NCBI GenBank assembly: GCA_049999805.1
Contig: JBNGIO010004124.1
Location: 1-48,596 of the forward strand
DNA: 48,596 nucleotides
Direction of reading: 5' to 3'
Source: Folioceros fuciformis
Taxonomy: Eukaryota
Shown here piece by piece: positions 9,726 through 39,741 of this stretch (positions within the stretch are counted from its first letter, which is position 1; the number at the start of each line of letters is the position of its first letter). The notes below the pieces were generated by a model. It was not told the origin of the DNA, made no database searches, and worked only from the letters and a program-made list of their open reading frames with translations. A program made the position numbers and the translations under genes.

Positions 9726-11051
9726 ATGGCCGCCACAATGTCGCAAGCATCTCTGCTTTCGCAAGCTGCCGCGCGCATCACAGTCAACAGCAAGCGGGAA
9801 TCGCTCTTTGGCTCAGAATTCAAGGGACAGCAGGTGACATTGGTGAAGTTCATCAAGACTGCCTCCGTGAATTTGAGATACCAACGACCCATCACGCAGT
9901 GCACGGCAACTGTTCCGTCGTCGGCAAGTATCAAGGGTTCGGATATTCCAGTTGAGGACCAGGAACGCCAAGTTTTCAACTTCGCCGCTGGTCCAGCCAC
10001 GCTTCCTTCGAGAGTCCTGAGAAAGGCGCAGGAGGAGCTCTTAGACTACAAAAACAGCGGTATGAGCGTCATGGAAATGAGTCACAGATCCAAGGAGTTC
10101 TTGTCTATCATTCTGAAAGCTGAAGCCGATTTCCGGGAGTTGCTGAAAATTCCGGAAACGTACGAAGTTTTGTTTGTGCCCGGGGGCGCGTCTACCCAGT
10201 TCTCTGCCATTCCTCTCCAGCTCTGCGAACCAGATGACACAGCAGATTTTATTGTCACAGGCTCCTGGAGTGACAAGGCGTACAAGGAGGCACAGAAATA
10301 CTGCAAGGCTAATTTGGCTTGGTCTGGGAAGGCAAACAAGTATACCCGCCTGCCTTCTAAGGATGAAATCAAACTCACGCCGGGAGCCAAGTTTGTCCAT
10401 ATTTGCGCCAATGAGACGATCCACGGGGTGGAGTTTAAGGATTATCCCGATGTAGGGGACTCTATTCTAGTGGCGGACATGTCCTCCAATTTCTGCTCCA
10501 AGCCTGTCGACGTCTCTAAGTTTGGTATCATCTATGGGGGTGTGCAGAAAAATATTGGACCAGCGGGTATTGCTATCGTGATCATCAGGAAAGATCTGCT
10601 TGGTAAGGCGCAGAAACAGACTCCTGTCATGTTGGACTACAAGACTCATGCCGACAACAAGTCGTTGTACAACACACCCCCATGCTGGATCATCTATTTG
10701 TGTGGCCTCGTCTTTGAAGACTTGTTGGCTCAGGGTGGCTTGGAAGGTATAGAAAAGAAGAACGTTGCCAAAGCTCAGCTATTATATGACGCTATCGATG
10801 AGAGCAATGGCTTCTACAGATGTCCCGTGGAGAAATCTGTTCGCTCTCTTATGAACGTGCCCTTCACAATGGGTACCCCTGAGCTAGAGGCTGCGTTTCT
10901 TAAGGAGGCCGCTGCCCAAGGTTTGAAGGAACTGAAAGGGCACCGGTCAGTTGGGGGTGTAAGAGCTTCCATCTACAATGCCATGCCCAAGATCGGTGTC
11001 GAGAAGTTGGTTGCCCATATGAAGGTGTTTCAAGCAAGGACTGAACTCTGA
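9726..11051 (+). CDS. PSAT: Phosphoserine aminotransferase, probably plastid-targeted, intronless
   Basis: [54 protein letters not shown] (PLP lysine), LYNTPP and [19 protein letters not shown]. Ser/Ala/Arg-rich N-terminal extension. Confidence 0.97.
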
Positions 11052-11504
11052 GAGGTGATTTTCGTCGGACTTTTTGAAAGACTGAATATCAGCATGTAGG
11101 AGTGGCTTGTCTATTGGCATATATACGTAAGGTGGCTTGACTTCTGAGTTTTAGAAGAGTTACCCGGTGATGAATTTTGCTCTGGGAGTAGCAGCTGCTG
11201 GAAGTTGATTGCCATAATTGAAAGAGTATATTTCGTAGGTACAGGTTGTTGCGACGTATTTTGTGGTTGAATGTTATTCATTTGACTAATCGAAAACTTT
11301 TGTGAAGCTTGTTGAGTTGATGGGGCAAGTAGAAGTGTCTTTTATATTTGTTGAACAAAACGAGAACACAGTTTGTTTGAAGCCCGAACGCAATCTCACT
11401 CGAATATGTACATGTGTCAGCCTGGGAAGTTTCTTACATCAAGGAAGTCATACTATGCTACTCAAGAATTCACAACTTCCTTCCTGCAGTTCATCTCTAC
11501 CGCC

Positions 11505-13577
11505 CTAATCAACTTCTTCAATCTTGGGCCCCGCCCCTGTGTTGCCAGCACCGGAAGCACCCGCATAGTTCGGCATGTCACCACCGCCCTCTCCGCCTTG
11601 ATACATCTTGGCGATGATTGGATTGCAGATATTTTCCACCTCCTTTTGTTTGTCCTCGAATTCCTCAACTTCCGCGAGCTGGTTGCGATCAAGCCACTCG
11701 ATAGCCCCATTCACCGCCTTCTCGATGGTCTCCTTATCTTGGGCTGAAAGTTTTCCTGCAAATTTCTCATCCTTGACAGTATTCCTCATGTTGTAGGCGT
11801 AATTTTCCAGGGCGTTCTTCGCCTCCACTTTCCTCTTCACCTCTTCATCCTCGGTCTTATATCTCTCTGCCTCTGCCACCATCCTTTCAATCTCATCTTT
11901 CCCCAACCTTCCCTTATCGTTCGTGATAGTTATTCTGTTCCTCACACCAGCTGTCTTGTCCTCCGCCGACACGTTCAGGATGCCGTTTGCATCAATGTCG
12001 AAGGTGACATTGATCTGTGGTACACCTCTCGGGGCTGGAGGGATTCCTGACAATTCGAATTTACCCAATAAGTTGTTATCCTTGGTTCTCGCCCTCTCTC
12101 CTTCGTATACTTGAATGAGCACTCCTGGCTGGTTGTCAGAGTAGGTGGAGAAGATTTGCTCCTTCTTGGTCGGAATGGTGGTGTTCCGAGGAATAAGCGT
12201 GGTCATCACTCCTCCCGCAGTCTCCAGCCCAAGGCTAAGGGGCGTCACGTCCAGCAGTAGAAGCTCTTGTACCTTCTCATCCCCTTCCCCACTCAAAATA
12301 GCTGCCTGCACTGCAGCACCATAGGCAACAGCCTCGTCGGGGTTGATACTCTTGCACAGCTCCTTCCCGTTGAAGAAATCCTGGAGCAGGTTCTGCACCT
12401 TGGGAATTCGGGTAGACCCTCCCACTAACACGACCTCATGCACTTGCCCCTTGTCCATCTTACCATCCTTTAAGCACTTCTCCACAGGAATCATGCAGTT
12501 GCGGAACAAATCCATGTTCATCTCCTCGAACCTTGCCCTTGTGATGGTGGAGTAGAAATCCACGCCTTCGAAGAGCGAATCGATCTCAATAGTGGTCTGG
12601 GCAGTGGATGACAAAGTCCGCTTGGCACGCTCACAAGCAGTCCTCAACCTTCTCAAGGCTCTGGAATTGCCGCTGATGTCCTTCCTGTGCTTCCTCTTGA
12701 ACTCCTGGACGAAGTGGTTCACCATCCGGTTGTCGAAGTCCTCACCACCTAAGTGCGTGTCACCGGCTGTGGCCTTGACCTCAAAAATACCCTCCTCGAT
12801 TGTGAGGAGGGACACGTCGAAAGTTCCACCCCCAAGATCAAAAATGAGGATGTTCTTCTCGGTCTTCCCCTTTTTGTCCAGGCCGTAGGCAATGGCGGCT
12901 GCTGTGGGCTCGTTGATGATCCTCATGACGTTCAGCCCCGCGATAACCCCGGCATCCTTGGTTGCCTGCCTTTGAGAGTCGTTGAAGTAGGCAGGAACAG
13001 TCACAACAGCATTCTTCACAGACCTCCCCAGGAAAGCCTCTGCCGTCTCCCTCATCTTGACGAGCACCATGGAGGATATCTCCTCAGCGGAGAATTGCTT
13101 CTCCTCTCCTTTGTATTTGACCAAGATCATTGGCTTGTCGTTAGGCCCCGCGATCACCTTAAAGGGCCACAGCTTTTGGTCTGCCTGGACGGATGCATCC
13201 GTGAACCGTCTACCAATCAGGCGCTTGGCATCTGAATTCCAAAGCGATCACACCATGTCAGAGCACGAAAACACAATTTTAAATCACTACATCCGTCTAC
13301 GACACTCCATAAATGGGGCCATAAGAATCCAGCACAAGCGGTGATTCAGCGAGGACGTACCGAAAACAGTGTTCTCAGGATTCATGGCAACTTGATTCTT
13401 CGCAGCATCTCCGATGAGACGCTCGGTGTCGGTGAAAGCCACATAAGACGGAGTGGTCCGATTGCCTTGGTCATTGGGGATGATCTCCACCCGATCATGA
13501 TGCCACACACCCACGCAGCTATATGTAGTGCCGAGGTCGATGCCGATTGCGGGCCCCTCTCCCTTTCCGGACGCCAT
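11505..13577 (-). CDS. HSP70: Cytosolic HSP70; exons 13577-13361 and 13231-11505
   Basis: [43 protein letters not shown] and C-terminal GPKIEEVD. A single GT-AG intron (13232-13360) splits the D codon of VFDAKRL, the conserved position in plant HSP70. Confidence 0.98.
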
Positions 13578-14066: not shown

Positions 14067-15699
14067 CTACCACCGCTCCCTTACTCGGGGAGGGTGGCCG
14101 GATGTTTTCAAGGCCGCTACAAGTTCTCTTTCTTTTTTATCAGCTTCGGCTACCGCTGCTAACATGTCCATCTCGTCGTCATCACTTTCACTGTCCTCGT
14201 CGTCCTCCTCCTCATCATCATCATCGTCACTGCCGATGCCGTCCTCCCCATCTTCATCACTTTCGTCATCATCCTCATCCTCATCCTCCTCGTCCCCTTC
14301 ACGACGACCTGCGGCTGTCGGTGCACCCTTCTTTCCAAGTGAAACCAGTTCGCCCAGGCGTGCTTTGACTTCCACCAAAGGATCCTTGTCGATCAGTTCA
14401 GATCCACGGTAGGCCTCCCTCAGAAAGACAGAGTCACGGGCTCCCTTCAGTGACACGTAGAACAACTCAGGATGCCGTATGATCATAGAATGAATCCTTT
14501 GTGAGAACTTGAAATCCCGCCTGAAGTGGGTAAGATGGTCTATCAATAACCGCTTCTCCAAAGTAAGGCTCAGGACCTCATGCACCACTGCCACAGCATG
14601 CTTCTCCGCCTCCGGGGATGAGGGACTCAGACTGCTGACATCGGCATAAGGCGAGATGTACGGGAGGTCCTGGAACTTGAGTATAACCTCTCTGTCCTTC
14701 CTGGACAGGTTGTACCCCTTCGGGAGATCGATTCTCCTGAATTTGTTAGGCCTCTCGAGTGACACGGCTTCTCTGGCTGCTTCCTCCTGAGCTTTCTTCC
14801 TTTCCCAAGCACTAACAGCCAAGCTGGGGTCCCACTCTTTCAGCTCCAATGCAGGCCCGTCTTCTATTTCCACCACATGGAAATACTGGGGGTACTTCGG
14901 CACCACCGAAGTGAGATAGTCCTCAGACAGCCCGAAGTCCCGCTTCACATGTGCCAGTTTCGAAAGCAGAATCCTTTTGTCAATGGACATCATCAACATC
15001 TTCCTCAGCTTCCCTACTGCCACAATTTCAAGCTCTTCCCTCAGTCTCAACTCCTCCTGGTGATGCTCTTCAGCCTGGGGCGTGAGCCTGAAGTAGAAGA
15101 CATTACACCCCTCTTCAAAAACCTACATCGGAGCCAGATTCTCATACAGTAACTCCAGGCTCCCTCACCCGTAACAACCTAGGCAACAAAAAACCACCCT
15201 GACTTCCTACCAGACCAGACGCACAGACGAGATCCATCAGCAGTAGTACCTTGAAAACAGCCGGGTATCTGTTGAGCAGAGCCACACATCTCCTCTTCCC
15301 CGTGAGCCCTATCTGCTTCCTGTTCTTCCCCAGGTCCCGGAGAGACATCACCCGGCCGGGTTGCTTCACGAGAAGGTCCTTGATGCGGCTCACAATCTTC
15401 AGCTTTTTTTCTCGCTGGATGACATTGTCGAAGGAGGGATCCTTCCTCCGCTTGATCCTAGCTGTTGGCAGCCAGGTCCTGGTGACCGATTTACTCTTGG
15501 GAATGCGAGCCCTTTGCAGCTGCTGCGTGGTGCCGAAGAATGCGGATTGCAACGCCAACGCTCCATGGCTCAGTTTCCCACCCCTTCCAATGAAGCACAC
15601 AGAGTGCTGCGGGGACGACCGCCCGCGCAAGTTGGCAAGCTCGCAGTTGAGAGAAGCTGCTACTGCCCAGGCCCGGCCGACACAAGCCCTCAGCGCCAT
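14067..15699 (-). CDS. WTF1: PORR-domain organellar group II intron splicing factor, WTF1-like; exons 15699-15250 and 15122-14067
   Basis: Transit-like N-terminus followed by RRKDPSFDNVIQREKKLKIV...QPGRVMSLRDLGK...ALLNRYPAVFK|VFEEG, KLRKMLMMS, FQDLPYISPY, EKHAVAVVHEVLSLTLEKR and IIRHPELFYVSLKG, then an acidic tail. GT-AG intron at 15123-15249. Confidence 0.88.
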
Positions 15700-16095
15700 G
15701 CGCAACTACAATCTTGGGAACACATGCATCCACGCCCCAAAGTACACTGGGCATCAACTTGGCCTTGGAATGAAGACCTAGCTAGCTAGATTCAATTACA
15801 GTTTTGATGTCATATTTCCTTATCCCCCTTACGTACCGAGAATTTCATTTCATGTTCATTTCTCTGTCCCCGTTATATACGTGTAGGTAGGTAAGAGTGA
15901 GTCTAAAATACTCAGGCACCGCGGACTCTTCAGAGCTCGGATTAGGGCACGCCGCCTCCGCAGCTCGCCTTTAGCACCTCTCCGTGCAGCCGTGGTCTTT
16001 CTCTCGCCGCCTTTGCAGCTCGGCCTCCAGCGCCTCTTGCGCTAATCTCTGGCCGGCTCCCTAGCTCTTCCGGCGCATTCGACGACCTCTCAATC

Positions 16096-17393: not shown

Positions 17394-20300
17394 ATGGCCA
17401 CTCTGTGGCAGCCGGATCTGCCGTGGATTCAGCAATTGTCTGGGATCACGGAGATCCATGGAGGAGCTCCCGCTCACCTCACTACAGACACTTCACCCCC
17501 TGCAAACAACCAGGCCTCCCGATGCAGTAGTGTACGGAGTCCAGCAATTCCAAGTAGATGGATTACTGGCGAGGTATTCTCTATCGATGGTGGTCGCCAG
17601 GTGCAAGAGCAGGAGCTCTTATGGCGAGATTTGTTTCTGGACCCTGCTAAGTGGTGGGATAACAGGCTAGGTAAGAAGAGCTCTCGTTCCCCTGACTTCC
17701 GTCGTAAAGGGTCCGGTGAGGTCCTCTGGTTAAACAACATTTCCAAGCCAGCTTGGGTGGATGAGCAGCTGGGTTCTTTGGATATGCAGATGGGTCATGG
17801 TGCCTTTCGTCCCAAGTGGAGGTCTCCGAGTAAGCCGGAGGCCGGCAGACCTGCAGGATTGGGAATGGGCGCTGTGACGCCTGTAACTGTGAGCACGTTA
17901 TGTCAACAGAAGAAGCTTGTCGAGGCCGTTGGAGCTCTGGAATCCCTGGCGCAGACAGACTGTCCTACTACTCGGTCTCTCTTTTACACTGTGTTAAAAC
18001 TGTGTGCAGCTAAGAAGGATACGGTTGTGGGGCGACGAGTTCATGATCTCGCTGTCAAACTTGGTTACGAATCAAATACATATCTGGGGAACCATATTTT
18101 GCGTATGTATGCATCTGGAGGTAAGCTACAAGAGGCCATGGATGTGTTCACCAGGGTGCTCAACCCAAATGCCTTCATGTGGAGTTCCATAATCGCTGCA
18201 CATGCTAAACATGGGAAACCTAATGAGGCCATACAACTGTACCATGAAATGTGTAGTTCAGGGGGGAAGGCAGATGCTCACGTCTTTGTAGCAGCCCTTC
18301 AAGCTTGCGCTGTTGCTGCGGACTTGGAATCTGGCATAAAATTGCATTTTGATGTGTTGCACAGTGGCATTCCTTCTAACTTGTTTGTTGGCAACTGCCT
18401 GGTGGACATGTACGCCAAGTGTGGTGAACTGGGAGAGGCACGCAGGGTTTTCGACAGCTTGGCCACCAAGGATGTGGTGACCTGGAATGCCCTAATTTCC
18501 GGGTATGGAAATCAAGGTCACAGCCAGGAGGCGCTTGTTGCGTACGGACAAATGGAGCTGGAGGGGCTGATTGTGGGTAACCATGTTACTTTTGCTAGTC
18601 TTCTGAAGGCGTGTGCAAGCGCTGGTGCCTTACAGAAGGGCAGGCAGCTGCACTCACAAATTGTGGAAAGAGGACTGCTAGGTAACATACTTGTGGGCAC
18701 TACCCTGGTGGACATGTATGCAAAGTGTGGTGAAATGGAAGATGCACGCCAAGTATTTGATAACTTGGCAACAAAGGATGTGGTGACATGGAATGCTCTG
18801 ATTGCTGGGTATGCACAGAAAGGACTTAGCCAAGAGGCGAGTGTTCTACATGAACAAATGGAGCAGGAGGGCCTCATTATGGCTGATGAGGTTACGTTTG
18901 CTTACCTTCTGAAGTCTTGCACTATCGACGGCGCCATACAGAAGGGTAGAGAGCTGCACTCCCTGATTGTGGAAAGAGGACTCCTAGATAGCATGCTTGT
19001 CCGCACTTGCCTGGTAGACATGTATGCAAAGTGTGGCGAACTGGAGGATGCACTCCAAGTTTTTGACAGCTTGGGCACTAAAAATGTTGTAACATGGACG
19101 GCCCTGATTGCTGGGTATGCACAGCAAGGTCTCGGTGAGCAGGCGCTTGTTCTGCATGCACAAATGGAGCAGCAAGGCCTGATTGTGGCTGACGATGTTA
19201 CTTTCGCGTGCCTTCTGAAAGCCTGTGCATTCTCTGGCGCCCTACAGAAGGGCAAGCAGCTGCACTTGCAGATTAAGGAAAGGGGGCAGCTTGATAGCGT
19301 ACTGTTGGGCAACTGCTTGGTGGACATGTATGCAAAGTGTGGCGTATTGGAAGATGCGCGCCAGGTGTTTGACAGCTTGACCACAAAGGATGCGGTGACC
19401 TGGAATGCCATGATTGCAGGGTATGCACAGCAAGGTCTGGTCCAGGAGGCGCTCGTCGTGTATGAACAAATGGAACAGGAGGCCCTGATTGTGGGTAATC
19501 ATGTTACTTTTGCTTGCCTTCTGAAGTCATGTGCAGCTGCTGGTGCCTTGCAGAATGGCAGGCAGTTGCATTCGCAGATCGTGGAACGAGGGCATCTAGA
19601 TAACATCCTGGTAGGCAACTCCCTGGTGGATATGTATGCAAAGTGTGGCGAACTGGAAGAGGCGCGCCGGGTTTTTGACAGCTTGGACAAAAAGGATGTC
19701 GTGACATGGAATGCCCTGATAGGTGGGTGTGGTTCTTGTGATGAAGGACACAACGCCCTAGCATGTTTTGAGGAGATGTTAATCGCCGGCATTCAACCTG
19801 ACGATGCCACTTTCACTTGCCTTTTGGCAGCATGCAGTCACAAGGGACTGGTGACTGAGGGGCGCAAGCACTTTGATTCCATGGTTGAAGACCATGGCAT
19901 CAGACCTACTATTGAGCATTACAATTGCATGGTTGACCTTCTTGGACGTGCAGGCCTTTTAGACGAGGCAGAGAAAATGCTCTTATCCTGTGAGAGCCAG
20001 AGCAATGTTGTGGGGTTGAGGTCATTGCTGAATTCCTGTAGAAGTCACGGGGACGTGGAGAGGGCAACACGGTGCTTTGACAGTCTCGTTAGGTTAGAAC
20101 CTCAAGGTGCATCCTCATATGTGCTCATGGCCAATGCCTACGCAGATGCCGGTAGGTGGGGTGATGTATCAAGGATTGAGACGCAGAGGATGGCGGCGGG
20201 AGCTAACAAGAAACCTGCAGTGGCGGGCATTGAGGTGAAGAAGCAGGTACATACTTTTGTGGTTGGCGACAGTAGAGATGACATTTCGGTCGAGTTAGAG

Positions 20301-20612
20301 AGCATGAATGCACGCCTGAAGCAGGAAGGGGGCCACGTCCCACACACAAAGTTGGTGTTGAAGTCTGTGTCTGAGAAGGAAAAGGAAGACGCACTTTGCG
20401 GGCATGCTGAAAAGCTAGCCTTGGCATTTGGTCTCTTGAACACTCCAAGTGGCACCCCTTTGGTGGTAACAAAGAACCTACGCATGTGCAGTGACTGCCA
20501 CAGCTCCACGGAGATCATGTCCCGGGTGGAAAGGAGAAACATTGTTGTAAGGGATGGGTACCGTGTTCATCGATTCGCGGCTGGTTCTTGCAGTTGCAAT
20601 GGTGGAACGTGA
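17394..20612 (+). CDS. PLS-class PPR protein with E1/E2 and KP-type DYW deaminase domain, plus N-terminal PDF (OSB-like) motif; paralog 1
   Basis: Repeated S (LVDMYAKCG), P (VVTWNALIAGYAQ) and L (VTFACLLKAC) motifs, then HYNCMVDLLGRAG, KKPAVAGIEV, GHAEKLALAFGL, KNLRMCSDCH and HRFAAGSCSC. The true start may lie in an upstream exon. Confidence 0.93.
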   Translation: MATLWQPDLPWIQQLSGITEIHGGAPAHLTTDTSPPANNQASRCSSVRSPAIPSRWITGEVFSIDGGRQVQEQELLWRDLFLDPAKWWDNRLGKKSSRSPDFRRKGSGEVLWLNNISKPAWVDEQLGSLDMQMGHGAFRPKWRSPSKPEAGRPAGLGMGAVTPVTVSTLCQQKKLVEAVGALESLAQTDCPTTRSLFYTVLKLCAAKKDTVVGRRVHDLAVKLGYESNTYLGNHILRMYASGGKLQEAMDVFTRVLNPNAFMWSSIIAAHAKHGKPNEAIQLYHEMCSSGGKADAHVFVAALQACAVAADLESGIKLHFDVLHSGIPSNLFVGNCLVDMYAKCGELGEARRVFDSLATKDVVTWNALISGYGNQGHSQEALVAYGQMELEGLIVGNHVTFASLLKACASAGALQKGRQLHSQIVERGLLGNILVGTTLVDMYAKCGEMEDARQVFDNLATKDVVTWNALIAGYAQKGLSQEASVLHEQMEQEGLIMADEVTFAYLLKSCTIDGAIQKGRELHSLIVERGLLDSMLVRTCLVDMYAKCGELEDALQVFDSLGTKNVVTWTALIAGYAQQGLGEQALVLHAQMEQQGLIVADDVTFACLLKACAFSGALQKGKQLHLQIKERGQLDSVLLGNCLVDMYAKCGVLEDARQVFDSLTTKDAVTWNAMIAGYAQQGLVQEALVVYEQMEQEALIVGNHVTFACLLKSCAAAGALQNGRQLHSQIVERGHLDNILVGNSLVDMYAKCGELEEARRVFDSLDKKDVVTWNALIGGCGSCDEGHNALACFEEMLIAGIQPDDATFTCLLAACSHKGLVTEGRKHFDSMVEDHGIRPTIEHYNCMVDLLGRAGLLDEAEKMLLSCESQSNVVGLRSLLNSCRSHGDVERATRCFDSLVRLEPQGASSYVLMANAYADAGRWGDVSRIETQRMAAGANKKPAVAGIEVKKQVHTFVVGDSRDDISVELESMNARLKQEGGHVPHTKLVLKSVSEKEKEDALCGHAEKLALAFGLLNTPSGTPLVVTKNLRMCSDCHSSTEIMSRVERRNIVVRDGYRVHRFAAGSCSCNGGT

Positions 20613-21066: not shown

Positions 21067-21178
21067 TGGAGCAAGGGTATGGACTTCCTCCCTAGTGATG
21101 GAGCAAGGGTATGGACTTCCTNNNNNNNNNNGGGTATGGACTTCCTCCCTAGTGATGGAGCAAGGGTATGGACTTCCT
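21067..21178. repeat. 32-bp tandem repeat spanning an assembly gap (N at 21122-21131)
   Basis: The unit tggagcaagggtatggacttcctccctagtga appears on both sides of the gap, so copy number is unresolved. Confidence 0.9.
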
Positions 21179-22228: not shown

Positions 22229-25129
22229 ATGCCCTCAGTATGCCAACCAGATCCATTTTCGACCCAACAAATTGGTGAATGTGCAGGGCTTGAACGAGGA
22301 GCCCCGGCCCACCTCACATCAGGGAGTCAAACGCTTGCGGGCTACCGGTGCCGCATTTCCAGGTACCCAGGACTTCCAGGCAAATGGATTGTTGGGGAAG
22401 GTTTTTCTACCGATGGTGGTCGCCAGCACCAGGAGCTTTTGTGGCGACAATTTTTTCAGGACCCTGGCATGTGGTGGGATACCAGGCGAGGTAAGACGAG
22501 CTCTCGCTCGCCTGACTTTCGGTGCAAGGAGTCCCGTGAGGTCCTCTGGTTAAACAACATGTTCAAGCCAGCGTGGGTGGATGAGAAGCTCGTTTCTTTG
22601 AACATGCAGGTGGGTGGTCATTGTGCCTGTCCTTCCAAGTCGAGATCTCCGGCGAAGCCTGAGCCTGGCAGGCGTGCCGGATCGGAAATGGAAGTCGTGA
22701 CGCCTGTAACCATCAGCATGTCGTGTGAGCAGGGAAAGCTTACTGAGGCCATTGGAGCTCTGGAATCTCTGGCACACACAAACACTTCTATTCCTCAGTC
22801 CATCTTTTATACCGTGCTAAAACTTTGTGCATCCAAGAAGGATATGGTTCTGGGACGACGCGTTCATGATCTCATTGTCAAACTTGGGTATGAGTCAGAC
22901 ACATTTTTGGGGAATCATGTCTTGCGGATGTATGCATCCGGAGGTAGGCTTCAGGAAGCCTTGGATGTGTTACACAGGGTGGGTAACCCAAATTCCTTCA
23001 TGTGGTTTTCAATTATCTCCGCACATGCTAAATATGGGGAGCCCCATGAGTCCATACGACTTTACCATGAGATGTGTCGCTCTGGTGTGAAGGCGGATGC
23101 CCACATCTTTGTAGCAGCGCTTCAAGCTTGTGCATTTGCTGTGGACCTGGAATCTGGCAGAAAGGTGCATCATGATGTGTTACACAGTGACATCCCACCT
23201 AACTTGTTTATTGCCAACTGTCTGGTGGACATGTACGCAAAATGTGGTGAACTGGAAGAGGCACGCAGGGTCTTTGACAGCTTAGGTAGAAAGGACGTCG
23301 TGACATGGACAGCCCTCATAGCTGGGTATGCAAATCATGGGCTTGGCCAAGAGGCGCTGGTTCTGTATGGACAAATGGAGCAGGAGGGTGTGATTGTGGG
23401 CAACCATGTTACCTTTGCTTGCCTTCTGAAGGCCTGCGCGAGTGCGGGTGCTCTGCAGAAGGGCAGGCAACTGCACTCACAGATTGCGGAGAGAGGACAA
23501 CTAGATAACACTCTTGTGGGCACTTGCCTGGTGGACATGTATGCAAAGTGTGGCGAATTGGAAGATGCGCATAGAGTTTTTGAATGCCTGAGCTCAAAGG
23601 ATGTGGTGACTTGGAATGCCCTCATTGCTGGGTATGCACAGAAAGGGCTTAGTCAAGAGGCGCTATATTTGTATGGACGAATGCAGCAGGAGGGCCTGAT
23701 TGTAGCTGATGAGGTCACTTTTGCTTGCCTTTTGAAGGCCTGTGCAAGCGTCGGTGCCTTACAGAAGGGCAGGCAGCTGCACTCGCAGATTGTGCAAAGG
23801 GGACATTTGGATAACAAACTTGTGGGCGCTGCTCTAGTGGACCTGTATGCTAAGTGTGGGCAACTGGATGATGCACGCCTCGTTTTTGACAGCTTGGCCA
23901 AGAAGGACGTGGTGACATGGACGGCCCTGATTGCTGGGTATGCACAGCAAGGTCTTGGCCAAGAGGCGTTACTTCTACACGGACAAATGGAGCAGCTGGG
24001 ATTGACTGTGGCTCAGCATGTCACTTTTGCGTGCCTTCTGAAAGCTTGTGCAAGTGCTGGTGCCCTACAGAAGGGAAGGCAGTTGCACTCACAAGTTGTG
24101 GAAAGTGGATCGCTTGATAACGTACTTGTGGGCACTTGCCTGGTGGACATGTATGCAAAATGTGGTGAGCTGCAAGATGCTCGCCGAGTCTTTGATAGCT
24201 TGGCATCAAAGGATGTGGTAACATGGAATGCCCTGATAGCTGGGTTTGGTACTTGTGATGAAGGACACAATGCACTGGCTTGTTTCGATGACATGCTTGC
24301 TGCTGGTATTCAGCCCGATGATGTTACGTTCACTTGCCTTCTAGGAGCATGTAGTCACGAGGGACTGGTGAATGAGGGTTGCAAGCTCTTCGATTCCATG
24401 GTTCAACAGCATGGCATCAAACCCACCATTGAGCACTACAATTGCATGGTTGATCTTCTCGGGCGTGCTGGTCGTTTAAATGAGGCAGAGAACATGCTCT
24501 TATCATGTGAGAGCCAAAGCAATGTCATCGGGTTGACGTCTCTGCTGAATGCCTGCAAAAGTCATGGGGATATGGAGAGGGGAGCACGGTGTTTCGAAAG
24601 TCTTGTTCGGCTACAGCCTCAGAGCGCATCCGCATATGTGCTCATGGCCAATGCCTATGCAGATGCGGGCAGGTGGACTGATGTGGAGAGGGTTGAAACA
24701 CAGAGAAAGGCAGCAGGAGCCAACAAGAAACCTGCAGTGGCAGGCATTGAAGTGAAGAAGCAAATACACACCTTCATGGTTGGGGGTAACAGAGACGATC
24801 TGGCATTCAAGGTAGAGAGCACGAATGCACGTCTGAAGCAGCAAGGGGGCCATGTACCACACACGAAGTTGGTGTTGAAGCCACTGTCGGAAAAGGAAAA
24901 GGAAGACGTGCTTTGCGGGCATGCTGAGAAGCTAGCTTTGGCGTTTGGTCTCTTGAACACTCCAAGTGGCACACCCCTGGTTGTAACGAAGAATCTACGC
25001 ATGTGCAGTGACTGCCACAGCTCCACAGAGATTATGTCAAGGGTTGAAAAGAGGGACATTGTGGTAAGGGATGGGTACCGAGTGCATCGGTTTGCTGCTG
25101 GTTTTTGCAGCTGTAAGAGTCGACAATGA
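22229..25129 (+). CDS. PLS-class PPR protein with KP-type DYW domain and N-terminal PDF (OSB-like) motif; paralog 2
   Basis: Colinear with paralog 1 from the first Met, with one PLS triplet fewer. Contains KKPAVAGIEV, GHAEKLA and CSDCH, and ends CSCKSRQ*. Confidence 0.93.
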   Translation: MPSVCQPDPFSTQQIGECAGLERGAPAHLTSGSQTLAGYRCRISRYPGLPGKWIVGEGFSTDGGRQHQELLWRQFFQDPGMWWDTRRGKTSSRSPDFRCKESREVLWLNNMFKPAWVDEKLVSLNMQVGGHCACPSKSRSPAKPEPGRRAGSEMEVVTPVTISMSCEQGKLTEAIGALESLAHTNTSIPQSIFYTVLKLCASKKDMVLGRRVHDLIVKLGYESDTFLGNHVLRMYASGGRLQEALDVLHRVGNPNSFMWFSIISAHAKYGEPHESIRLYHEMCRSGVKADAHIFVAALQACAFAVDLESGRKVHHDVLHSDIPPNLFIANCLVDMYAKCGELEEARRVFDSLGRKDVVTWTALIAGYANHGLGQEALVLYGQMEQEGVIVGNHVTFACLLKACASAGALQKGRQLHSQIAERGQLDNTLVGTCLVDMYAKCGELEDAHRVFECLSSKDVVTWNALIAGYAQKGLSQEALYLYGRMQQEGLIVADEVTFACLLKACASVGALQKGRQLHSQIVQRGHLDNKLVGAALVDLYAKCGQLDDARLVFDSLAKKDVVTWTALIAGYAQQGLGQEALLLHGQMEQLGLTVAQHVTFACLLKACASAGALQKGRQLHSQVVESGSLDNVLVGTCLVDMYAKCGELQDARRVFDSLASKDVVTWNALIAGFGTCDEGHNALACFDDMLAAGIQPDDVTFTCLLGACSHEGLVNEGCKLFDSMVQQHGIKPTIEHYNCMVDLLGRAGRLNEAENMLLSCESQSNVIGLTSLLNACKSHGDMERGARCFESLVRLQPQSASAYVLMANAYADAGRWTDVERVETQRKAAGANKKPAVAGIEVKKQIHTFMVGGNRDDLAFKVESTNARLKQQGGHVPHTKLVLKPLSEKEKEDVLCGHAEKLALAFGLLNTPSGTPLVVTKNLRMCSDCHSSTEIMSRVEKRDIVVRDGYRVHRFAAGFCSCKSRQ

Positions 25130-31716: not shown

Positions 31717-33405
31717 TCAGACATCGGTAGTCGACTGGTTCGCAGGCAGTGGGGCTGTTGAGTTGCCGTCGGTCTCGCCGGGGTGAGAGCCTCCTTTGGC
31801 GCCGCGGGTATGGTTGATTGCTAGCAGAGCCCAATCATCCAAATGGAGGGCGATGAAAGTCCCTATCCCTCCTATCAAGCCGTAAGCAATGGAGTACGTG
31901 AGTGGCATGAGTATGATGGTAATGAAGGCGGGAATGCCTTCCTTGAGGTTGTCCCAGTCGATCTCCACCACAGACTTCATCATCAGCACTCCCACCAACA
32001 GCAGGGCAGGACCCACAGCCCATGGAGGGATGGAAGCAAGCAATGGCGTGAGGAAGAGCGCCAGACAGAAATAGAAGGCAACAGTGAGAGCGGTGAGGCC
32101 GGTGCGGCCTCCCTCTCGGATGCCCGTGGCAGACTCGATGAATGTGGTCACAGGAGAGGTGCCGAGCGACGCGCCTATCACAATAGCTGTGGCGTCGCTC
32201 ATGAAGGCGAAGTACTGGCCCTCAAAGTTGCCCATCTCGTCCACGAAGCCTGCGAATTTGGCCATGGAGTAGAGGGAGCCGGTTGCATCTAGAAGATCAA
32301 TGTAGAGGAAGGTGACCAAGGCTACCCAAAACTCGCTCCTCCCTATGTCATGGAAGCTCAAGGCACCGGCAGTGTGCTCGATCTTGTGCACCTGCACCAC
32401 CTTCTTGAAGTAAGCATAGGCAGCATCTCCGGCCTCAGTCTCGGGAAAGTAGGTGACCTTGGTGTGGCGGAACCAGGAAACTACTGTGACAAACAAGATG
32501 CCATAAATCATAGCGCCCTTGATGTTGTAGATAAGCGTGTAAGCAATGAGGAGAAAGCCCACCACCGCCAGCCAGAAGGTCGGGTCTTCCATGGTGTTCC
32601 TCTCGCACATGATGGCTGAGGTGACCACTCCCCCAGGCATGAGCGCCACCGTGCCGTTGACAGTGATGACGGGAGCCAGCTGCAGCCTGTCCTCGCGAGG
32701 ACACGCGCCCAAGGTGACGAGAGTGGAGCCGCTGCTGGCAACGAGCCCCACGCCCTCGCTGGACTGCAGTCCGATGAAGGCTAGGAAAAGGCCAATCCCT
32801 GCGGACGTGGACATCCGCACGGGCTTTGGGATGAGCTTGGCCAGCTTGGTTCGAAAGCCAAGCCCGGCGATGATGAGGAAGAGGAAGCCTTCCACGAAGA
32901 CGGCAGCGAGGGCGCTCTTGTAGGACAGGCTCCCGGAGCCGTGGAATCCCACCACGGTGTAGGCGAAATACGCGTTGGTGCCCATCCCAGGAGCCAGTGC
33001 CAGCGGCAAGTTGGCGAAGACTCCCATGATAAGGCACCCGATGAGGCTGGCGGCTGCAGTGGCCACGATGAGGTCCTTCTTCACGGCCGTCAGGCAGTCG
33101 GCATAGCCCACATCCACGGGCGGGAACTTACAACCGGGCCCCGGGAGCTGTCCCGGGGGAAGCTGCGAACCGTCGGCGAAGAAGCCGGTGCAGTCAGCCA
33201 CACTGCAGGTGCCGCCGGAATCCGTCAGGATGCTAGCGTTCACAGCCAGTATATAGGCCATGGTGAGGAAGGTGGCCGTGCCGGCTCGCAACTCGCGGGT
33301 GAGGTAGGTGCCCCGTTGCTCTAGCTTGAAATGCTTGCCGACGATGCTCCGGTTCACGGCGGCGTTCACGGATTTGAGCAGGGAGTCCCATCTCCCTCCG
33401 GCCAT
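31717..33405 (-). CDS. AZG1: Adenine/guanine permease (AzgA/NCS2 family), AZG1-like, intronless
   Basis: [75 protein letters not shown] and [14 protein letters not shown]. First in-frame ATG at 33405. Confidence 0.93.
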
Positions 33406-33829
33406 CCAAAGCTGCGTCCTCGTCGTCGTGCCACACGGCAGCTTGCGCGTCACAGGGCCGAGGGCTATGCTCTTCTATGCATGCGCTGCTTGTTCCATGC
33501 ATCCCTCTCCCGACCCAACACCATGCCCTTCTCTTCTAGCACGTAGAGTCGCAAACCATTTGAAAGCCATATGCACTTCGACAGGGGTAACCCGCAGTTC
33601 TCTCTAAATGATTCTGTTTTGGCGCGTTCGTGTGACTCGCTTGGATGATTGCGGCTGGTTGACTGAGCACATCTTATCGACCAACCAAACTTCAGCCACC
33701 CTGAGGACAGCTGGAATTTCCAGGAGACAGGAGCTCGCTGTTTCCATTCTCTCTTAGCCTGTTCTCTCCCTCTTTCCCTGGTTGTGTCCTTATTCTCTTC
33801 GGTGAATTTTACAAGAATCTAGGTTTGGA

Positions 33830-35013: not shown

Positions 35014-37236
35014 CTAGCGCGCACGGCAATTGGCTTCACTTGAGATTGGCCTCTTCTCAACTGGTATGTACGCAAAAGCTCTCGAGCCAAAGACGTGAAG
35101 ATGCATGATACTTGGTTTTCTCTTCCAGAATATCTCGAAAGGCGTGCTACTAGGAACCGACTGTGATGTGAGCTTGTTGAGTATATACATAGCTGTCACT
35201 ATTGCTTCTGTCTAGTATGGAGAAGGTAATCCTGACCACAAGAGCATTGACCTCGTCATTCCCATCAATGTTTGATTCTTTCATTCTGCCACCCCGTTTT
35301 GCTGCTGGGTATATGGAACGATAAGTTGATGAATAATGCCTTGGCTGGTTAGGAACTCCGTGAAGTCATGGTTGACAAATTCACCACCATTGTTAGTCCT
35401 AAAGAGCTTTAGCAAATGACCAGTTTGACGTTGCACCATGATCAACCAATCCTTGAAGATAGGGAATGTATCATTCTTATGGTGCATCGGGTATGTCCAC
35501 GTATACCGGCTATAGTCATCAGTTAAAGTCAGAAAGAAGGCTGCACCTCCGAGTGACTGAATTTGTAGCCTGCCTGATATGTTTGAGTGCACAAGGTCGA
35601 GGACTGATGTTGACCTATGAGCAGGAGCCCTTGGAAAAGGAGTCTCTCGTTGCTTTGCAAGGGTGCAAACTTCACAAATAGGCAGCTCCTTGAAACAACG
35701 TGGGAGAGGCTCACAATAGTAATGCTGCCTAGAGGCATCAATCAATTTAGTTCTATTAGCATGGCCTAGGTGTGCATGCCACAGCCTGGCCTACTGGACA
35801 GCTGTTAGGCTGCCAACTATGGTGGAACATGCTTGCTGTCGTCGGAGGCAAAAAATGTCAAGACGGTACAATTTGGAATCTATGAAAGCTTTGAAGATAC
35901 ATATGGCTGGGGCACTATGTCTAGAGAAACAACAAGCGTCTTCTGAGACGGTAAGAACTGAATCCTTCATTTTCATCAATCTGCTAAGTGACATTAAATT
36001 CTGAGCCATCTTAGGTACATACAAGACGTATGGGAGGACTAACATGCTATCATCGTGTAAGGGAAATTTACAGACTCCTCTACCAAGGATCTGAAGACTA
36101 CTCCCTACACTCTCATCACCCAAGTATACTTTTTCAGCAACGGCTGATAGTGTTAAACTGGTAAAGAGAGATTCATCCCCACAGATATAGGCTATTGCCC
36201 CTGAGTCCAAAAACCAACAATCCACCTCACTCGTTAAAGTGTTAAGACAAACAATAAGGATCGTTACTACTGGCTTGCCTGAATTTGTGGATGTTGTTAA
36301 GGACTGTCTGTCCTGACTACATTTTTGTGTGGTTGTATGTGTAGAGGGTCGAGAAGAAGCCCGTTGAGGCTCGCCGGCTTTCTTTTTCCAGCATTCCCGT
36401 GCCCAATGCCCTGGAGTGCTACACAAATTGCATGTACCTTGTCGTTTCTGAGCAGAGGAAGATGAACCAATGTTGCCAGGTGTGTATGAACCATGGCCAG
36501 CACGTTGATTCGGATTTATCCCCCTTCCTCTACCTCTGCCTCTAGTTGCTAAGAAAACTTTGTCGGTTTTCTGTTGCTTTTGCTGCCCTCTCATAAGTCA
36601 TGTTTGTTCTTCTTGGTATAGGGCTCCCACCACAGCCTCCAGCAAACGAGTTGGAGCACCAGCTAGTAGGGACTGGCCAAGAAGAGCAATGGGCATATTC
36701 TGAGTGGTGACAAAAGTTTGATAGCTTGTAGGAAGGCTGACTAGAAATTGTGCCACTACATCAGCCTCAGTCATAGGACTCCCAAGTGTGTTGAATTGGG
36801 ATCGCAAGCATCGAAACTTGCTAATATGATGTGACACAGACTCACCATCTCTCATTCGCAGGCTGTAGAGTTCAAGGCAAACTGCACAAAGGGTCATCAT
36901 ATTCTGAACCTTGTAAGTGTTTGACAATTGGTATCATATATCCTTGGCATTAACCAAGTATTTAGTTTTAGGAATGAGGTCAGCATCCAAGCCGTTAACC
37001 AAGAGAGCAATGGCAATGCTATTGAAGCCATCCCAATTATCCTTGTCGGCTTGAGTGACAGTTGTAGGAACTCCTGTTGCACCAGGTACATCAGGATCCT
37101 TGTAGGAGCCATCAACAATAGTCCAAACGCCACGAGCGACCAAGGTAGTCTTCATGCGAACCTTCCAGATGTCAAATCTCGTTCCATTAAAGCAGTCTTT
37201 GTTCTTTACGTCAAATGTAAATGAGGGAGTTGACAT
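35014..37236 (-). mobile_element. Ty1/copia retrotransposon remnant: gag, CCHC knuckle, protease, GAG-pre-integrase and integrase; truncated before RT
   Basis: FNGTRFDIWKVRMK, CNLCSTPGHWAREC, WFLDSGA, LWHAHLGH, CEVC, DDYSRYTW, PYTQQQNGVAE and TPFEIFWKRKPSIMHLHVFGS, with in-frame stops. Confidence 0.92.
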
Positions 37237-38288
37237 GGTGAAATGCAGGATGTTAAGTGCACAAAAGCGCTGTAGAACTGCTACAAGGAAAAGTGTTCAC
37301 AAATAGCTACAGGGGAATGTCAACTGACAAGGAGGTATGTAGGACCATGTATGTGATGGTTCACATCTAAAATAACTGTCTAAAACCGTTGTGAAAAGTG
37401 CCCTAAAAAACTAATTAGGAAAACTGACCTAAGTTTGGAAACGTGCCCTAAAATGTAATGAGGATGTTCTGGTGATGTTCAAGTGGCAGGGAAAATAACT
37501 GTTGAACTATGGATTGGCGGCAAAGATGAAATTGGATGAGTTGCACATAGAACGCATCTGATCCGATAGCACAATCACCCAATTCATTGCTCCAGTATGA
37601 TAGAAGTGGATGCCAAATTACTGCGCAGCACTCCAGTGGTGCCCTCCACATGCAGCGGAATTCAAAGAACAGGATCTGCAGGGCTCTGCTCTGATTGACC
37701 CAATTTCTGTATCAACTTCACATCAGAATACTATAGAAATAATTGGATCAGATTCTGAGTAGCCAACACACCATTGCTGATGTCCTTGCTACATTGATCC
37801 ATTCCATGATGCATTCTCTTCTCCATGTCATGTAAAGCTGTGAGAAATAGGTCTTGTCTTGCAATCAAATGAAAGATGCAAATGTCAAGTCTGCCATAAT
37901 GGTAATTGATCAATTTTGACAGTGAGTCATCTGAATCTGGAACATCATCATCATTCTTCTCACCTGAAATCGCGTCATCTAAATTTAGGATCTTTTCCTT
38001 CAATTTAGAATTTTGCAAATTTTGATCAAAATAATAGTGTGATGATTCCCCTTTGCAATCTCTCAGTTGATTACATACTGTCCTCATTCTTGTGTTTCCC
38101 TGTTCCAATGCACACGGATTTGGGTGTGATACTCATCAAAGTATTGATTCCATGGCCCGTCACACATTGGGGGAATCCACTGCACTCCTCTACAGTTGCG
38201 TGGAAATACTTCACGCGATGGAGGTAGTGCATGCGATTCCTTCCTGCTAGGCATTGGACAAGAACCAAGAATCAGTAGATGGCATCAT

Positions 38289-38492
38289 ACTATGATACCA
38301 TGATCCAATCCGTAGAGCATCAGTAGCTTGATAGTAATGTGTGCTTGCGGATAGGTGGAATAGAAGAAAATGGATAATCAACTGAATAAACATGAAGAGC
38401 AAAGAGTACTTATAGTACAATGTATTTAACCTAAATTAACTAGGCATATTTAACCTAAGATGGTTATGTATTCAACATACCTCACCCTCACA
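38289..38492 (-). mobile_element. Putative short LTR (38301-38492, TG...CA) with adjacent tRNA-iMet-like PBS (38289-38300)
   Basis: The minus strand reads TG...GGATCA|TGGTATCATAGT, a 10/12 match to the canonical TGGTATCAGAGC. The segment begins exactly where the copia RT frame breaks off. Confidence 0.5.
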
Positions 38493-39466
38493 TCTAGGTA
38501 CTACGTAGCCTTTGGGTTGCTCCATGTAGATTTCTTCGTTCAGATCTCCTTTTAGAAAAGCAGTTTAAACATCCATATGATATATCTCCATATCCAAAGT
38601 AGCAGCGATAGCAAGGAGTGCTCGGATAGAGGCTATTTTCGCGACAGGAGAGAAGGTATGTGTGTAGTCCACACCTGGAATCTGCGTACACCCTTTTCCC
38701 ACCAGCCTTGCCTTGTACCGCTCTATGCTGCCGTCAACCTTCCGCTTGATCTTGAAAGTCCACTTCGATCCTATGCACTTCCTTCCAGGGAGTAGGGGAG
38801 TAATAATCCACATTTTGTTGGTAATGAGGGAGTTATACTCACTGTCCACAGCTTCTCTCCATTCTTTTGCATTTGGGCCTGCGAATGCCTTTGTCAAGCA
38901 GCGGGGTTCTCCAACATCTACAAAACACACCTCCTCATTAACACATCCATTAAGAGATTCTATGAGCTTCTGTGATGGCTTTTGCAACTTGGTAGATTTT
39001 GTAATGTTGGTTGCAGTTCTGTAACTCGATAGTCTTCTTCTACTTCTTCAGTAAAATCAAGAGTTTCTCTCTCTCCCCCCTCGATGTTGCATTCTACACT
39101 TGCGGCTGGGGGTAAGACTCCAACTACGTCTTCAACCACAGTGACATCATGACTGTCTCTCCCTCCCCCCCCCTACCCTATGTCGTAAGGTTGAGAAGAG
39201 TAGACAGGCATTGGAGCGGAAATCACACCATAGTCTGCGGCAGACTCGAAGGGAGCGAGTAAGGGAGGAGATGAAGCTCCCACTCCAGTTGTAGCCTCGG
39301 CAACCTCTTGAAAAACAACATCCCTGCTAAAAATGACCTTCTTCATAGTAAGATCGTATAACCAATAACCTTTCACTACATCGGAATAGCCAAGCATGAG
39401 ACACTTCGTACCATTAGAATCCCATTTGGTCCGGCTCGCCTTTGGAACACGAGCATAGACCTCGGA
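38493..39466 (-). mobile_element. Ty1/copia fragment: post-integrase region and N-terminal reverse transcriptase
   Basis: EVYARVPKASRTKWD..GTKCLMLGYS, VIFSRDVVFQE, CIGSKWTFKIK..DGSIERYKARLVGKG, QIPGVDY..TFSPVAK, YHMDV*TAFLKGDLNEEIYMEQPKG. Confidence 0.92.
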
Positions 39467-39741
39467 CCTTGGCATTCCCAGCCAGCTATTAGCACGTCTA
39501 TGGATCCCAGGGCTTGGATGTGGCCTTGTTGGATGTACATGATGTCTTCAGGCAGTGCTGAGAATGTGGCAACTAAGGCTACCTCCGATAGCTGTGTGGG
39601 GAACGTGCTGCGGAGCTCTTGTAAGCGATGAGCAGCTATCTGCTGTGCTTCCCTGCTGCTGTCACATTATGCATAGTGCCTTGTAGGGAGGCCTGCCTTA
39701 AGCAAAGCCTTTAGGCCAGTACAAATGCCACCAAACAACTT
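39466..39741 (-). pseudogene. C5-cytosine DNA methyltransferase-like fragment (motifs I-IV)
   Basis: One frame reads KLFGGICTGLKALLKAGLPTRHYA*CDSSREAQQIAAHRLQELRSTFPTQLSEVALVATFSALPEDIMYIQQGHIQALGSIDVLIAGWECQG, with a single stop at 39667-39669. Confidence 0.75.

Follow-up and report, generated by a model that had tools for sequence, protein, structure and literature searches.

Two tandem genes in the window, by which we mean the whole stretch of 48,596 nucleotides analysed here, encode PPR proteins of the PLS-E-DYW:KP type that carry a genuine PDF domain, the module known from OSB proteins, ahead of the PPR array. PLS-class editing factors as usually described begin with a targeting peptide, continue with a PPR tract and close with E/DYW domains at the C-terminus; since this layout has no extra N-terminal domain, a conserved OSB-derived PDF in that place, predicted to be folded, deserves attention. 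The domain is found on dozens of PLS-class proteins, encoded by a lycophyte, by ferns and by the source genome of the window. Our literature searches brought up no paper on a PDF linked to PPR or DYW (Gerke 2020 and Gutmann 2020 were covered via citations alone), and two family-wide surveys of 2026 made no mention of a PDF-PPR fusion; the fusion thus appears to be uncharacterised, just as the original prediction supposed.

Two tandem PPR genes with an N-terminal PDF domain

The reading frame of paralog 1 runs without interruption from a TTG at 17388 (the start as listed) through the first ATG at 17394 to the stop codon at 20610-20612, and its parts follow one another in the order presequence, PDF, linker, PLS PPR array, E, DYW:KP. 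The features of both genes are as follows.

17394..20612, + strand: CDS of paralog 1, single exon, intact, 1072 aa plus stop (ORF and translation)
17394..17585, + strand: presequence of paralog 1, residues 1-64, predicted disordered, S/T/P-rich (AF2 pLDDT and composition)
17598..17789, + strand: PDF domain of paralog 1, residues 69-132 (OSB-only profile), with 17613-17771 as its core
17799..17864, + strand: linker modelled at low confidence, residues 136-157, joining the PDF domain to the first PPR helices (AF2)
17880..20045, + strand: PLS-type PPR array of paralog 1 (Pfam PPR families)
20046..20234, + strand: E motif (Pfam PF20431), residues 887-949 of the 1074-aa reading from 17388
20211..20609, + strand: DYW:KP deaminase-like domain of paralog 1, 133 aa counted from the KPAVA box
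22229..25129, + strand: CDS of paralog 2, intact, 966 aa plus stop, layout as in paralog 1
22421..22603, + strand: PDF domain of paralog 2, residues 65-125 (OSB-only PDF profile, 71.5 bits)
24728..25126, + strand: DYW:KP domain of paralog 2, 133 aa, KPAVA box, Lys88, C-terminus SRQ

Translation of 17613-17771 (+) yields exactly the 53 residues named in the original prediction, which are residues 74-126 of the paralog 1 ORF, while the reverse strand contains stops. The ORF and the Pfam matches (PPR, 1.9e-98; E_motif, 6.9e-14; DYW_deaminase PF14432, 5.5e-33) confirm the claim that the motif and the PPR array lie in one uninterrupted frame of a PLS-E-DYW:KP protein. The start Met is aligned with that of paralog 2 and is preceded by an in-frame stop five codons upstream; when a hidden 5′ exon was sought via nucleotide homology between the paralogs, no such homology was detected upstream of about 17461/22296.

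The presequence (pLDDT <50 at residues 1-6 and 8-64 in the AF2 model) is only 46% identical between the paralogs. It is a putative organelle targeting peptide, atypical of the textbook transit peptide in having 5-6 acidic residues among the first 70. In the linker, pLDDT falls below 50 at residues 136-149 and 152-157, and confident helices start at residue 163; over the 73 codons that follow the 53-aa core as far as residue 199, linker included, the paralogs are 59% identical with an omega of 0.54.

The PPR array of paralog 1 shows six S-motif signatures, at residues 238, 339, 441, 543, 645 and 747, five of them spaced 102 aa apart. Its KP box, of the kind labelled KPAxA, reads KPAVA and is located at residue 940, followed by HAE...CSDC at residue 1004 and a Lys at position 88 of the domain, and the protein ends in GGT, not in DYW. 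Paralog 2 lacks one 102-aa P-L-S triplet relative to paralog 1, and it likewise has PLS-type PPR repeats followed by the E motif, with the zinc-ligand motif HAE...CSDC at residue 898. The features ascribed to DYW:KP proteins are a KP box replacing the PG box, a domain of 132/133 aa, Lys88 and a C-terminus other than DYW (as given in PMC9478123 and PMC11845758). Thus, paralog 1 is a PLS-E-DYW PPR protein of the DYW:KP type. In hornworts, lycophytes and ferns, proteins of this type are described as candidates for U-to-C editing (Gerke 2020 and Gutmann 2020, as cited in PMC9478123), and on its sequence paralog 1 is such a candidate as well; by its KP domain, the source plant should belong to one of these three groups (PMC9478123). 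Both window paralogs share with DYW:KP factors the PLS repeats, the E motif, the 133-aa domain, the KP box, HxE...CxxC and Lys88; unlike those described, they carry an extra N-terminal PDF domain with a predicted fold, and their C-terminal triplets are GGT and SRQ vs. the DRH or GRP reported for hornwort variants in PMC9478123.

The 53-residue stretch is a genuine PDF domain

OSB1-4 are plant organellar ssDNA-binding proteins with PDF motifs (Zaegel et al. 2006, as cited in PMC6963530 and PMC4166229), and the motif is described as about 50 aa long with a conserved Pro-Asp-Phe signature (PMC6963530). To compare the stretch with these motifs, we used a profile built from 39 PDF domains of 19 proteins bearing a Pfam SSB domain or an OSB name. 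This OSB-only profile aligned with residues 69-132 of paralog 1 at 80.0 bits (i-E 5e-27), and its scores for the two paralogs are to be set against 8.4 bits, the best among 400 composition-preserving shuffles of both N-termini. The OSB homology proposed in the original prediction is thereby borne out. In a word-index search, all five matches were OSB or OSB-like, the best being OSB3 of Striga hermonthica (E 2.9e-51, 59% identity), with 44-59% identity to the PDFs of OSB3 and OSB2 proteins; an exhaustive search returned 644 proteins at E<=1e-3. When PPR-length proteins were sought by the word index with residues 1-190, the Striga OSB3 alone was returned, which reflects the word filter, not absence.

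Like the PDFs of OSB proteins, the stretch is a module of roughly 50-60 aa with the signature W..F..P..WWDNR..K...PDF.HK...E.LW....P.WV. Two alignments, one of 11 PPR-linked PDFs (A1) and one of 24 PDFs (A2), share the invariant residues W27, D29, R31, K34, P40, D41, L51, W52, P59 and W61; F42 and V62 are invariant in A1 and conserved in at least 90% of A2, and F21 is invariant in A2 and conserved in at least 90% of A1. A Pfam scan of the 53-aa stretch matched 0 families, Pfam having no model for the PDF motif.

Paralog 1 is not itself a member of the OSB family. In OSBs the PDFs are C-terminal and follow a central OB-fold/SSB-like domain, whereas paralog 1 has a single PDF, placed N-terminally to the PPR array, and no such central domain; SSB (PF00436) is absent among the 25 of 30 matched Pfam families listed for its ORF. 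Among the matches listed, the SSB domain was found in 15 of 150 PDF proteins. The PDF domain thus occurs beyond the OSB family, contrary to the way in which the OSB papers present it in the passages cited here.

Predicted fold and selective constraint

Folded alone by AlphaFold2, the PDF domain reached a pLDDT of 85.7 and a pTM of 0.70. In the AF2 model it stands out at a pLDDT of about 86-95 between low-confidence segments and comprises a helix at residues 66-82, short strands and a helix at residues 121-132, so the PDF is predicted to be an autonomous mini-domain. A sequence search of the Protein Data Bank turned up nothing but CP29 N-termini, at chance level (E of about 0.5 or higher); Foldseek of the PDF model against the PDB found nothing at E<=1e-3; and the best VIA-align hit among 48,161 chains had a Z of 4.4, within noise for small helical models, so that no fold was assigned. 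As comparison with solved structures gave no informative match to the predicted fold, the structure lends no independent support to nucleic-acid binding. The comparison by HMM and structure prediction that the original prediction proposed was favourable as regards the OSB profile match and the confident mini-domain, but yielded no solved-structure match.

Identity between the paralogs amounts to 74% in the PDF, vs. 46% and 59% in its flanks. With a dN of 0.129, the PDF comes close to the PPR-DYW body (0.119), and the omega of the motif is 0.29, a value based on only 53 codons of one gene pair. These figures point to constraint on the motif.

PDF-PPR proteins of ferns and a lycophyte

The set of PDF-PPR proteins comprises 42 members, including the two of the window, with at least 40 others from ferns and the lycophyte Diphasiastrum. 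Among the 120 matches listed, 32 were PPR-bearing (29 from Diphasiastrum, one from Adiantum and one from Pteridium among them), and further fern records lay beyond the 120 listed; all named fusions recovered were of fern or lycophyte origin. The window pair resembles unstudied proteins of Diphasiastrum complanatum, Adiantum capillus-veneris, Ceratopteris richardii and Pteridium aquilinum, where the N-terminal PDF(s) are followed by a PLS-type PPR array and the records are annotated as hypothetical or PPR-containing. The ORF of a Pteridium transcript holds three PDFs together with PPR repeats. One, two, three or four PDF copies were counted in 10, 23, 8 and 1 of the 42 proteins, respectively, and in 41 of the 42 all PDFs lie within the first 350 aa; the tandem copies of the relatives, two to four in number, span up to about 340 aa.

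These data bear on the view that the PDF is a dispensable extension that does nothing in the mature protein, whether it is cut off along with the targeting peptide or is the decaying remnant of a captured exon. The motif does lie near the N-terminus, where presequences get cleaved, and its flanks evolve fast; yet a confident autonomous fold is predicted for it, its dN is on a par with the catalytic body's, its signature residues are conserved across the window, ferns and a lycophyte, and the span of the tandem copies is far beyond the length of a presequence. We therefore hold this explanation to be very unlikely.

Unlike the window pair, the fern and Diphasiastrum proteins, with their one to four PDFs, end in E motifs or in GDYW, and none of those in the set is of the KP type, which among the 42 is confined to the window's two genes. 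The full-length fern proteins stop at E1 and have no deaminase; four Diphasiastrum proteins have a canonical DYW domain, all four ending in GDYW and three of them with a K-x-PG-x-S box. The occurrence of PDF-PPR in both E1-ending fern proteins and GDYW proteins of Diphasiastrum suggests that the fusion is general to PLS-class PPR proteins of seed-free plants. A special tie of the fusion to KP-type domains or U-to-C chemistry, as had been suggested, is accordingly not supported. The idea that the PDF helps the U-to-C (amination) reaction of DYW:KP domains draws on the fact that both PDF-bearing genes in the window are of the KP type, but it fits neither the fern nor the Diphasiastrum proteins, and designer KP proteins are reported to perform U-to-C editing without a PDF (PMC9478123); we regard it as extremely improbable.

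In trees, the PPR-linked PDFs clustered together. FastTree with 80 PPR-linked and 110 other PDFs required 3 label changes vs. a shuffled mean of 61, and an IQ-TREE subset 2 vs. 27.7 when shuffled; one PPR-linked PDF clade was not rejected by the AU test (p 0.79). The PDFs of the window and of ferns formed a FastTree clade marked 98*; the quick tree from IQ-TREE had no corresponding starred clade. Judged from their sequences, the window PDFs have their nearest relatives in the fern PPR-linked PDFs, and the PPR-linked PDFs appear to make up a subfamily of their own, for which a single origin is not rejected. Since this subfamily is common to ferns and a lycophyte, the fusion is probably an old one, and it is not bound to the KP class.

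Possible role of the PDF domain

PPR tracts bind RNA in parallel, with the N-terminus towards the 5′ end. As the likeliest role for the PDF of the two window proteins, with about an even chance of being right, we propose that it helps from the N-terminus by clamping single-stranded nucleic acid. Once the protein has been imported and its presequence removed, the PDF would be kept on the mature protein and would act as a sequence-independent clamp, which, given the parallel orientation, would occupy the RNA 5′ of the PPR footprint, adding affinity and holding the editing site unfolded. Specificity would come from the PPR code, and the base conversion would be carried out by the C-terminal DYW:KP domain.

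The nature of the ligand is where the nearest alternative arises, since AtOSB1 and AtOSB2 are reported to prefer ssDNA over dsDNA or RNA (PMC4166229), which favours DNA over the RNA that we propose. The PDF might thus retain the ssDNA preference of OSBs and anchor the factor at organelle nucleoids, so that editing would be coupled to transcription; transcription bubbles, R-loops, or replication or recombination intermediates might serve as targets. The PDF is the binding module of OSBs, the motif of AtOSB1 being described as sufficient for ssDNA binding (PMC6963530), and every conserved OSB residue is kept in the PPR-linked PDFs. On the other hand, multi-copy PDFs on dozens of site-specific PPR proteins fit a generic gain in RNA affinity equally well, and as the PPR-linked PDFs appear to form a separate subfamily, their ligand preference may have shifted. 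We consider a nucleoid tether fairly unlikely.

The PDF might instead be a protein-protein module that mediates oligomerisation or brings the PPR protein to OSB proteins or other partners without binding nucleic acid. AtOSB2 is a tetramer, the region responsible not being stated in the relevant passage of PMC6963530, and small helix-strand-helix domains may often act as docking units. The conserved surface, though, is rich in Trp/Phe and Arg/Lys, as would be expected where single-stranded nucleic acid is contacted, and the sufficiency of the AtOSB1 PDF for ssDNA binding also speaks against this alternative, which we find quite unlikely. A complex prediction for two copies of the 76-aa PDF segment, run without controls, scored 0.00, which is no answer and counts neither for nor against.

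Beyond the accessory clamp proposed for the KP factors, the distribution invites a wider reading, which we put forward as rather doubtful: the N-terminal PDF may be an ancient RNA-affinity booster acting in cis in PLS-class factors of seed-free plants, the counterpart of MORF acting in trans in seed plants. In the 2017 work of Yan et al., MORF/RIP accessory factors are said to raise the RNA binding of PLS-type PPR editing factors. The analogy would be functional only, because MORFs are separate polypeptides of an unrelated fold with no sequence relation to the PDF. MORF is described as occurring in seed plants only (PMC13386178), and all named PDF-PPR proteins recovered in our searches come from ferns and a lycophyte, a pattern that the in-cis booster would explain. 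If so, either an organelle DNA-maintenance module has been re-used for RNA or editing is physically coupled to the nucleoid. More generally, the PDF would be a part of the editing apparatus that has been overlooked in the heaviest-editing, MORF-less lineages, and engineered PPR editors could gain from it a compact module that adds affinity.

The PDF motif and its host ORF

The 53 residues of the motif are the exact translation of 17613-17771 on the + strand; on the opposite strand, stops break the frame. They form residues 74-126 of a single ORF, listed from a TTG at 17388, with an in-frame stop five codons upstream of the first ATG (17394). In this ORF, Pfam found PPR repeats (E 1.9e-98), the E motif (E 6.9e-14) and a DYW-family deaminase domain (E 5.5e-33), which bears out the claim that the PDF motif lies upstream of the PPR array in the same unbroken frame. 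A second intact gene of the same layout follows in tandem, and a six-frame search of the whole window revealed no PDF motif copy beyond these two.

17394-20612, + strand: paralog 1, from the first ATG to the end of the stop codon
17613-17771, + strand: PDF motif core of paralog 1
22229-25129, + strand: paralog 2

Both host proteins bear a KPAVA box at the site of the PG box of canonical DYW domains, the zinc ligands HAE...CSDC, a domain that measures exactly 133 aa when counted from its KP box to the C-terminus, and Lys at position 88 of this domain. These features, together with C-termini other than DYW, fit the descriptions of DYW:KP domains in PMC9478123 and PMC11845758. The end triplets themselves, GGT in paralog 1 and SRQ in paralog 2, differ from the hornwort variants DRH or GRP that the former source names.

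Homology to OSB proteins and predicted structure

The PDF motif, about 50 aa long and named after Pro-Asp-Phe, is described in PMC6963530 and PMC4166229 as lying downstream of the OB-fold in OSB proteins, where one to three copies stand; the motif of AtOSB1 is sufficient for ssDNA binding (PMC6963530). The 53-aa stretch alone matched no Pfam family, so there is no Pfam model of the motif. A word-index search with a 76-aa segment returned five proteins: OSB3 of Striga hermonthica at the top (E 2.9e-51, 59% identity), two S. asiatica OSB3 records, a Salvia OSB2-like protein and a Handroanthus hypothetical protein. When 1.84 billion representatives were searched exhaustively, 644 proteins matched at E<=1e-3, of which 174 also passed E<=1e-10. 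Among the 150 matches listed, Pfam at E<=1e-8 assigned the SSB domain expected of OSBs to 15, PPR repeats to nine, other families to three (kinesin, a Peptidase_S41 fragment, a DUF4927 match) and no family to 123.

A profile built only from OSB proteins (39 domains from 15 SSB-bearing and four source-named OSB proteins) scored 80.0 bits with the motif of paralog 1 and 71.5 bits with that of paralog 2, while 400 shuffled versions of the two N-termini reached at most 8.4 bits. By these sequence comparisons, homology of the stretch to the OSB-type PDF motif is firmly established, as the original prediction had it. The C-terminal half (LW....P.W) of A1, a profile of 11 PPR-linked PDFs, resembled CP29 antenna proteins at their N-terminus (PDB chains 8bd3_R, 9hd7_R, 6kac_R) at chance level (E 0.5-0.8), probably a coincidence.

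AlphaFold2 modelled the 76-aa segment (24-row alignment) with pLDDT 85.7 and pTM 0.70, as a helix (6-22), short strands (27-29 and 42-44) and a second helix (61-73). In a model of the first 230 residues of paralog 1 (12 rows), the PDF (66-132) had pLDDT 87-95, residues 1-64 and 136-157 fell below 50, and PPR helices, modelled at pLDDT of about 90, began with residue 163. With low-confidence flanks on both sides, the PDF is thus predicted to fold autonomously and to hang on a flexible tether; the same values speak against its being a piece of an unstructured presequence. Searches of solved structures with the PDF gave no informative match, and the fold therefore adds nothing on function. That the module serves protein-protein contacts appears to us rather improbable.

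Constraint and divergence between the paralogs

Overall identity between the two paralogs is 75%, and dS is about 0.74.

Comparison of paralogs 1 and 2 by region
Before the motif: 68 codons; aa identity 46%; dN 0.402; omega 0.36
PDF core: 53 codons; aa identity 74%; dN 0.129; omega 0.29
Motif end to residue 199: 73 codons; aa identity 59%; dN 0.252; omega 0.54
PPR-E-DYW body: 771 codons; aa identity 79%; dN 0.119; omega 0.16

Judged from only 53 codons and one gene pair, amino acid change in the PDF has been as slow as in the PPR-E-DYW body. A PDF that is cleaved off or persists as a relic is, in our estimate, very improbable. The start methionines align, with the next conserved residues directly behind them, and no nucleotide similarity between the paralogs was detectable upstream of about 17461/22296; hence nothing points to an upstream exon common to both.

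One P-L-S triplet, exactly the 102 aa of a clean indel (18800-19105, present in paralog 1 and a gap in paralog 2), was gained or lost as a repeat unit after the tandem duplication. Paralog 2 has five S-motif signatures; of the six in paralog 1, five follow one another at a spacing of 102 aa. Given the indel and the differing counts, the two proteins presumably recognise different RNAs. Between the two genes, at 21122-21131, 10 N in a row probably mark a scaffold gap inside the duplication, so array spacing, and possibly copy number, may be misassembled.

PDF-PPR fusions in other plants

The nine listed matches combining PDF with PPR include proteins of the ferns Adiantum capillus-veneris, Ceratopteris richardii and Pteridium aquilinum and of the lycophyte Diphasiastrum complanatum. 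Run against longer proteins, profile A1 gave 1155 matches at E<=1e-3 among 8000 candidates scored. PPR families were present in 32 of the 120 matches listed (29 from Diphasiastrum, one from Adiantum, one Pteridium transcript ORF and one further record); as these were ordered by summed score, which favours multi-copy proteins, the counts are lower bounds. In total, the PDF-PPR set comprises at least 42 proteins, including the window's two and one isoform. Ten of them carry one PDF, 23 two, eight three and one four, and all PDFs lie within the first 350 residues in 41 of the 42, the exception being the database protein P0173 with a second pair at residues 636-735.

Outside the window's genes, a DYW domain was found in four proteins of this set, all from Diphasiastrum; GDYW is the C-terminus of each, and a K-x-PG-x-S box is present in three. 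The full-length fern proteins stop at the E1 motif, without a deaminase. P0196, an E-type Diphasiastrum protein, has the string KPALA but lacks HxE...CxxC. The PDF-PPR architecture is thus real and widespread among seed-free vascular plants, private neither to the window nor to the KP class. Since the PDF stands on GDYW-ending and E1-ending proteins, it follows PLS-class PPR proteins in general and not U-to-C chemistry. The special tie to the KP type that had been proposed is not upheld, and a role as a helper of KP-specific chemistry, present though the motif is on both KP proteins, is scarcely credible.

PDF repeats were also seen in further gene models (P0037, P0031, P0149). They occur with a kinesin motor in a Coptis chinensis model, with a Peptidase_S41 fragment in another, and in a Striga protein named by its source "Interactor of constitutive active ROPs 2"; such cases may stem from the merging of gene models and not from true fusion. 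Multi-PDF proteins P0030 and P0186 come from a transcriptome whose label names the dinoflagellate Biecheleria cincta and from an MMETSP transcript; either contamination or a wider distribution may lie behind them.

Origin of the PPR-linked PDFs

A FastTree phylogeny was built from 80 PPR-linked PDFs and 110 others (110 proteins drawn at random, each contributing one randomly picked domain), leaving out domains covering <45 profile positions and one isoform. It required three changes between PPR and other labels against a shuffled mean of 61, a value as low occurring in 0 of 500 shuffles. The window's two PDFs fell inside a 13-row clade (support 98) of PPR-linked PDFs only, with Ceratopteris, Adiantum, Pteridium and three further records. 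For a quick IQ-TREE analysis, 12 long-branch rows were removed and the remainder subsampled to 38 PPR-linked PDFs and 45 from other proteins; the resulting tree needed two label changes against 27.7 for shuffles. Forcing all PPR-linked PDFs into one group gave a tree slightly better than the unconstrained one, and the AU test did not reject it (p 0.79). In this 83-PDF subset no well-supported clade with the window's PDFs was recovered; fern PPR-linked PDFs were again nearest to them. A PPR-only profile made without the window's rows scored them at 87.6 and 85.1 bits, against 73-84 bits with other profiles. The data fit one old fusion that then spread with the PPR family, with the limits that trees of about 74 columns are weak and that related sequences cluster by descent.

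Possible role of the PDF

PPR tracts bind RNA in parallel, with the N-terminus towards the 5′ end, and the target of the DYW domain lies immediately 3′ of the PPR footprint. A conserved, foldable PDF precedes the RNA-binding tract, separated from it by a linker predicted to be flexible. We infer that it may act there, at the footprint's 5′ edge, as an accessory clamp on single-stranded nucleic acid, which would raise affinity or keep the site open; that the PDF is kept in the mature protein and clamps RNA in this way has, in our view, about an even chance of being right. A tether to ssDNA or nucleoids seems unlikely to us, though it draws on the preference of OSB1 and OSB2 for ssDNA over dsDNA or RNA stated in PMC4166229.

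The editing factor class and the PDF module are both known; new is their joint architecture, undescribed in the searchable literature. Among open full texts, no paper pairs "PDF motif" with "DYW", and none, supplements aside, ties the PDF motif or OSB to PPR proteins, a passing mention in Gutmann 2020, Gerke 2020 or Zaegel 2006 being possible. The fusion thus remains uncharacterised within that literature, as was supposed. Apparent OSB matches within PPR papers proved to be author names. A 2026 kingdom-wide survey of editing factors catalogues domain fusions, with no mention of OSB or PDF in its available part (PMC13386178). Public databases label PDF-PPR proteins "hypothetical" or "PPR-containing".

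Neighbouring genes and elements

Upstream of paralog 1, in head-to-head orientation, stands a gene with a PORR (plant organelle RNA recognition) domain; the PPR pair thus has another gene of organelle RNA metabolism beside it, perhaps by coincidence. The aminotransferase, HSP70 and permease-family ORFs each lie mostly in one open frame, and the region is gene-dense and intron-poor. Retrotransposon remnants extend across 35794-46435.

14070-15705, - strand: PORR-domain gene, two exons (PF11955, 1.1e-86 and 1.1e-14)
within 9726-13157 and 31720-33453: class-V aminotransferase ORF (441 aa), HSP70 ORF and xanthine/uracil-permease-family ORF
35794-36594, - strand: Pol beta-barrel domain ORF
41101-42072, - strand: zinc-knuckle-like gag ORF, no Pfam match
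45680-46435, + strand: reverse transcriptase fragment
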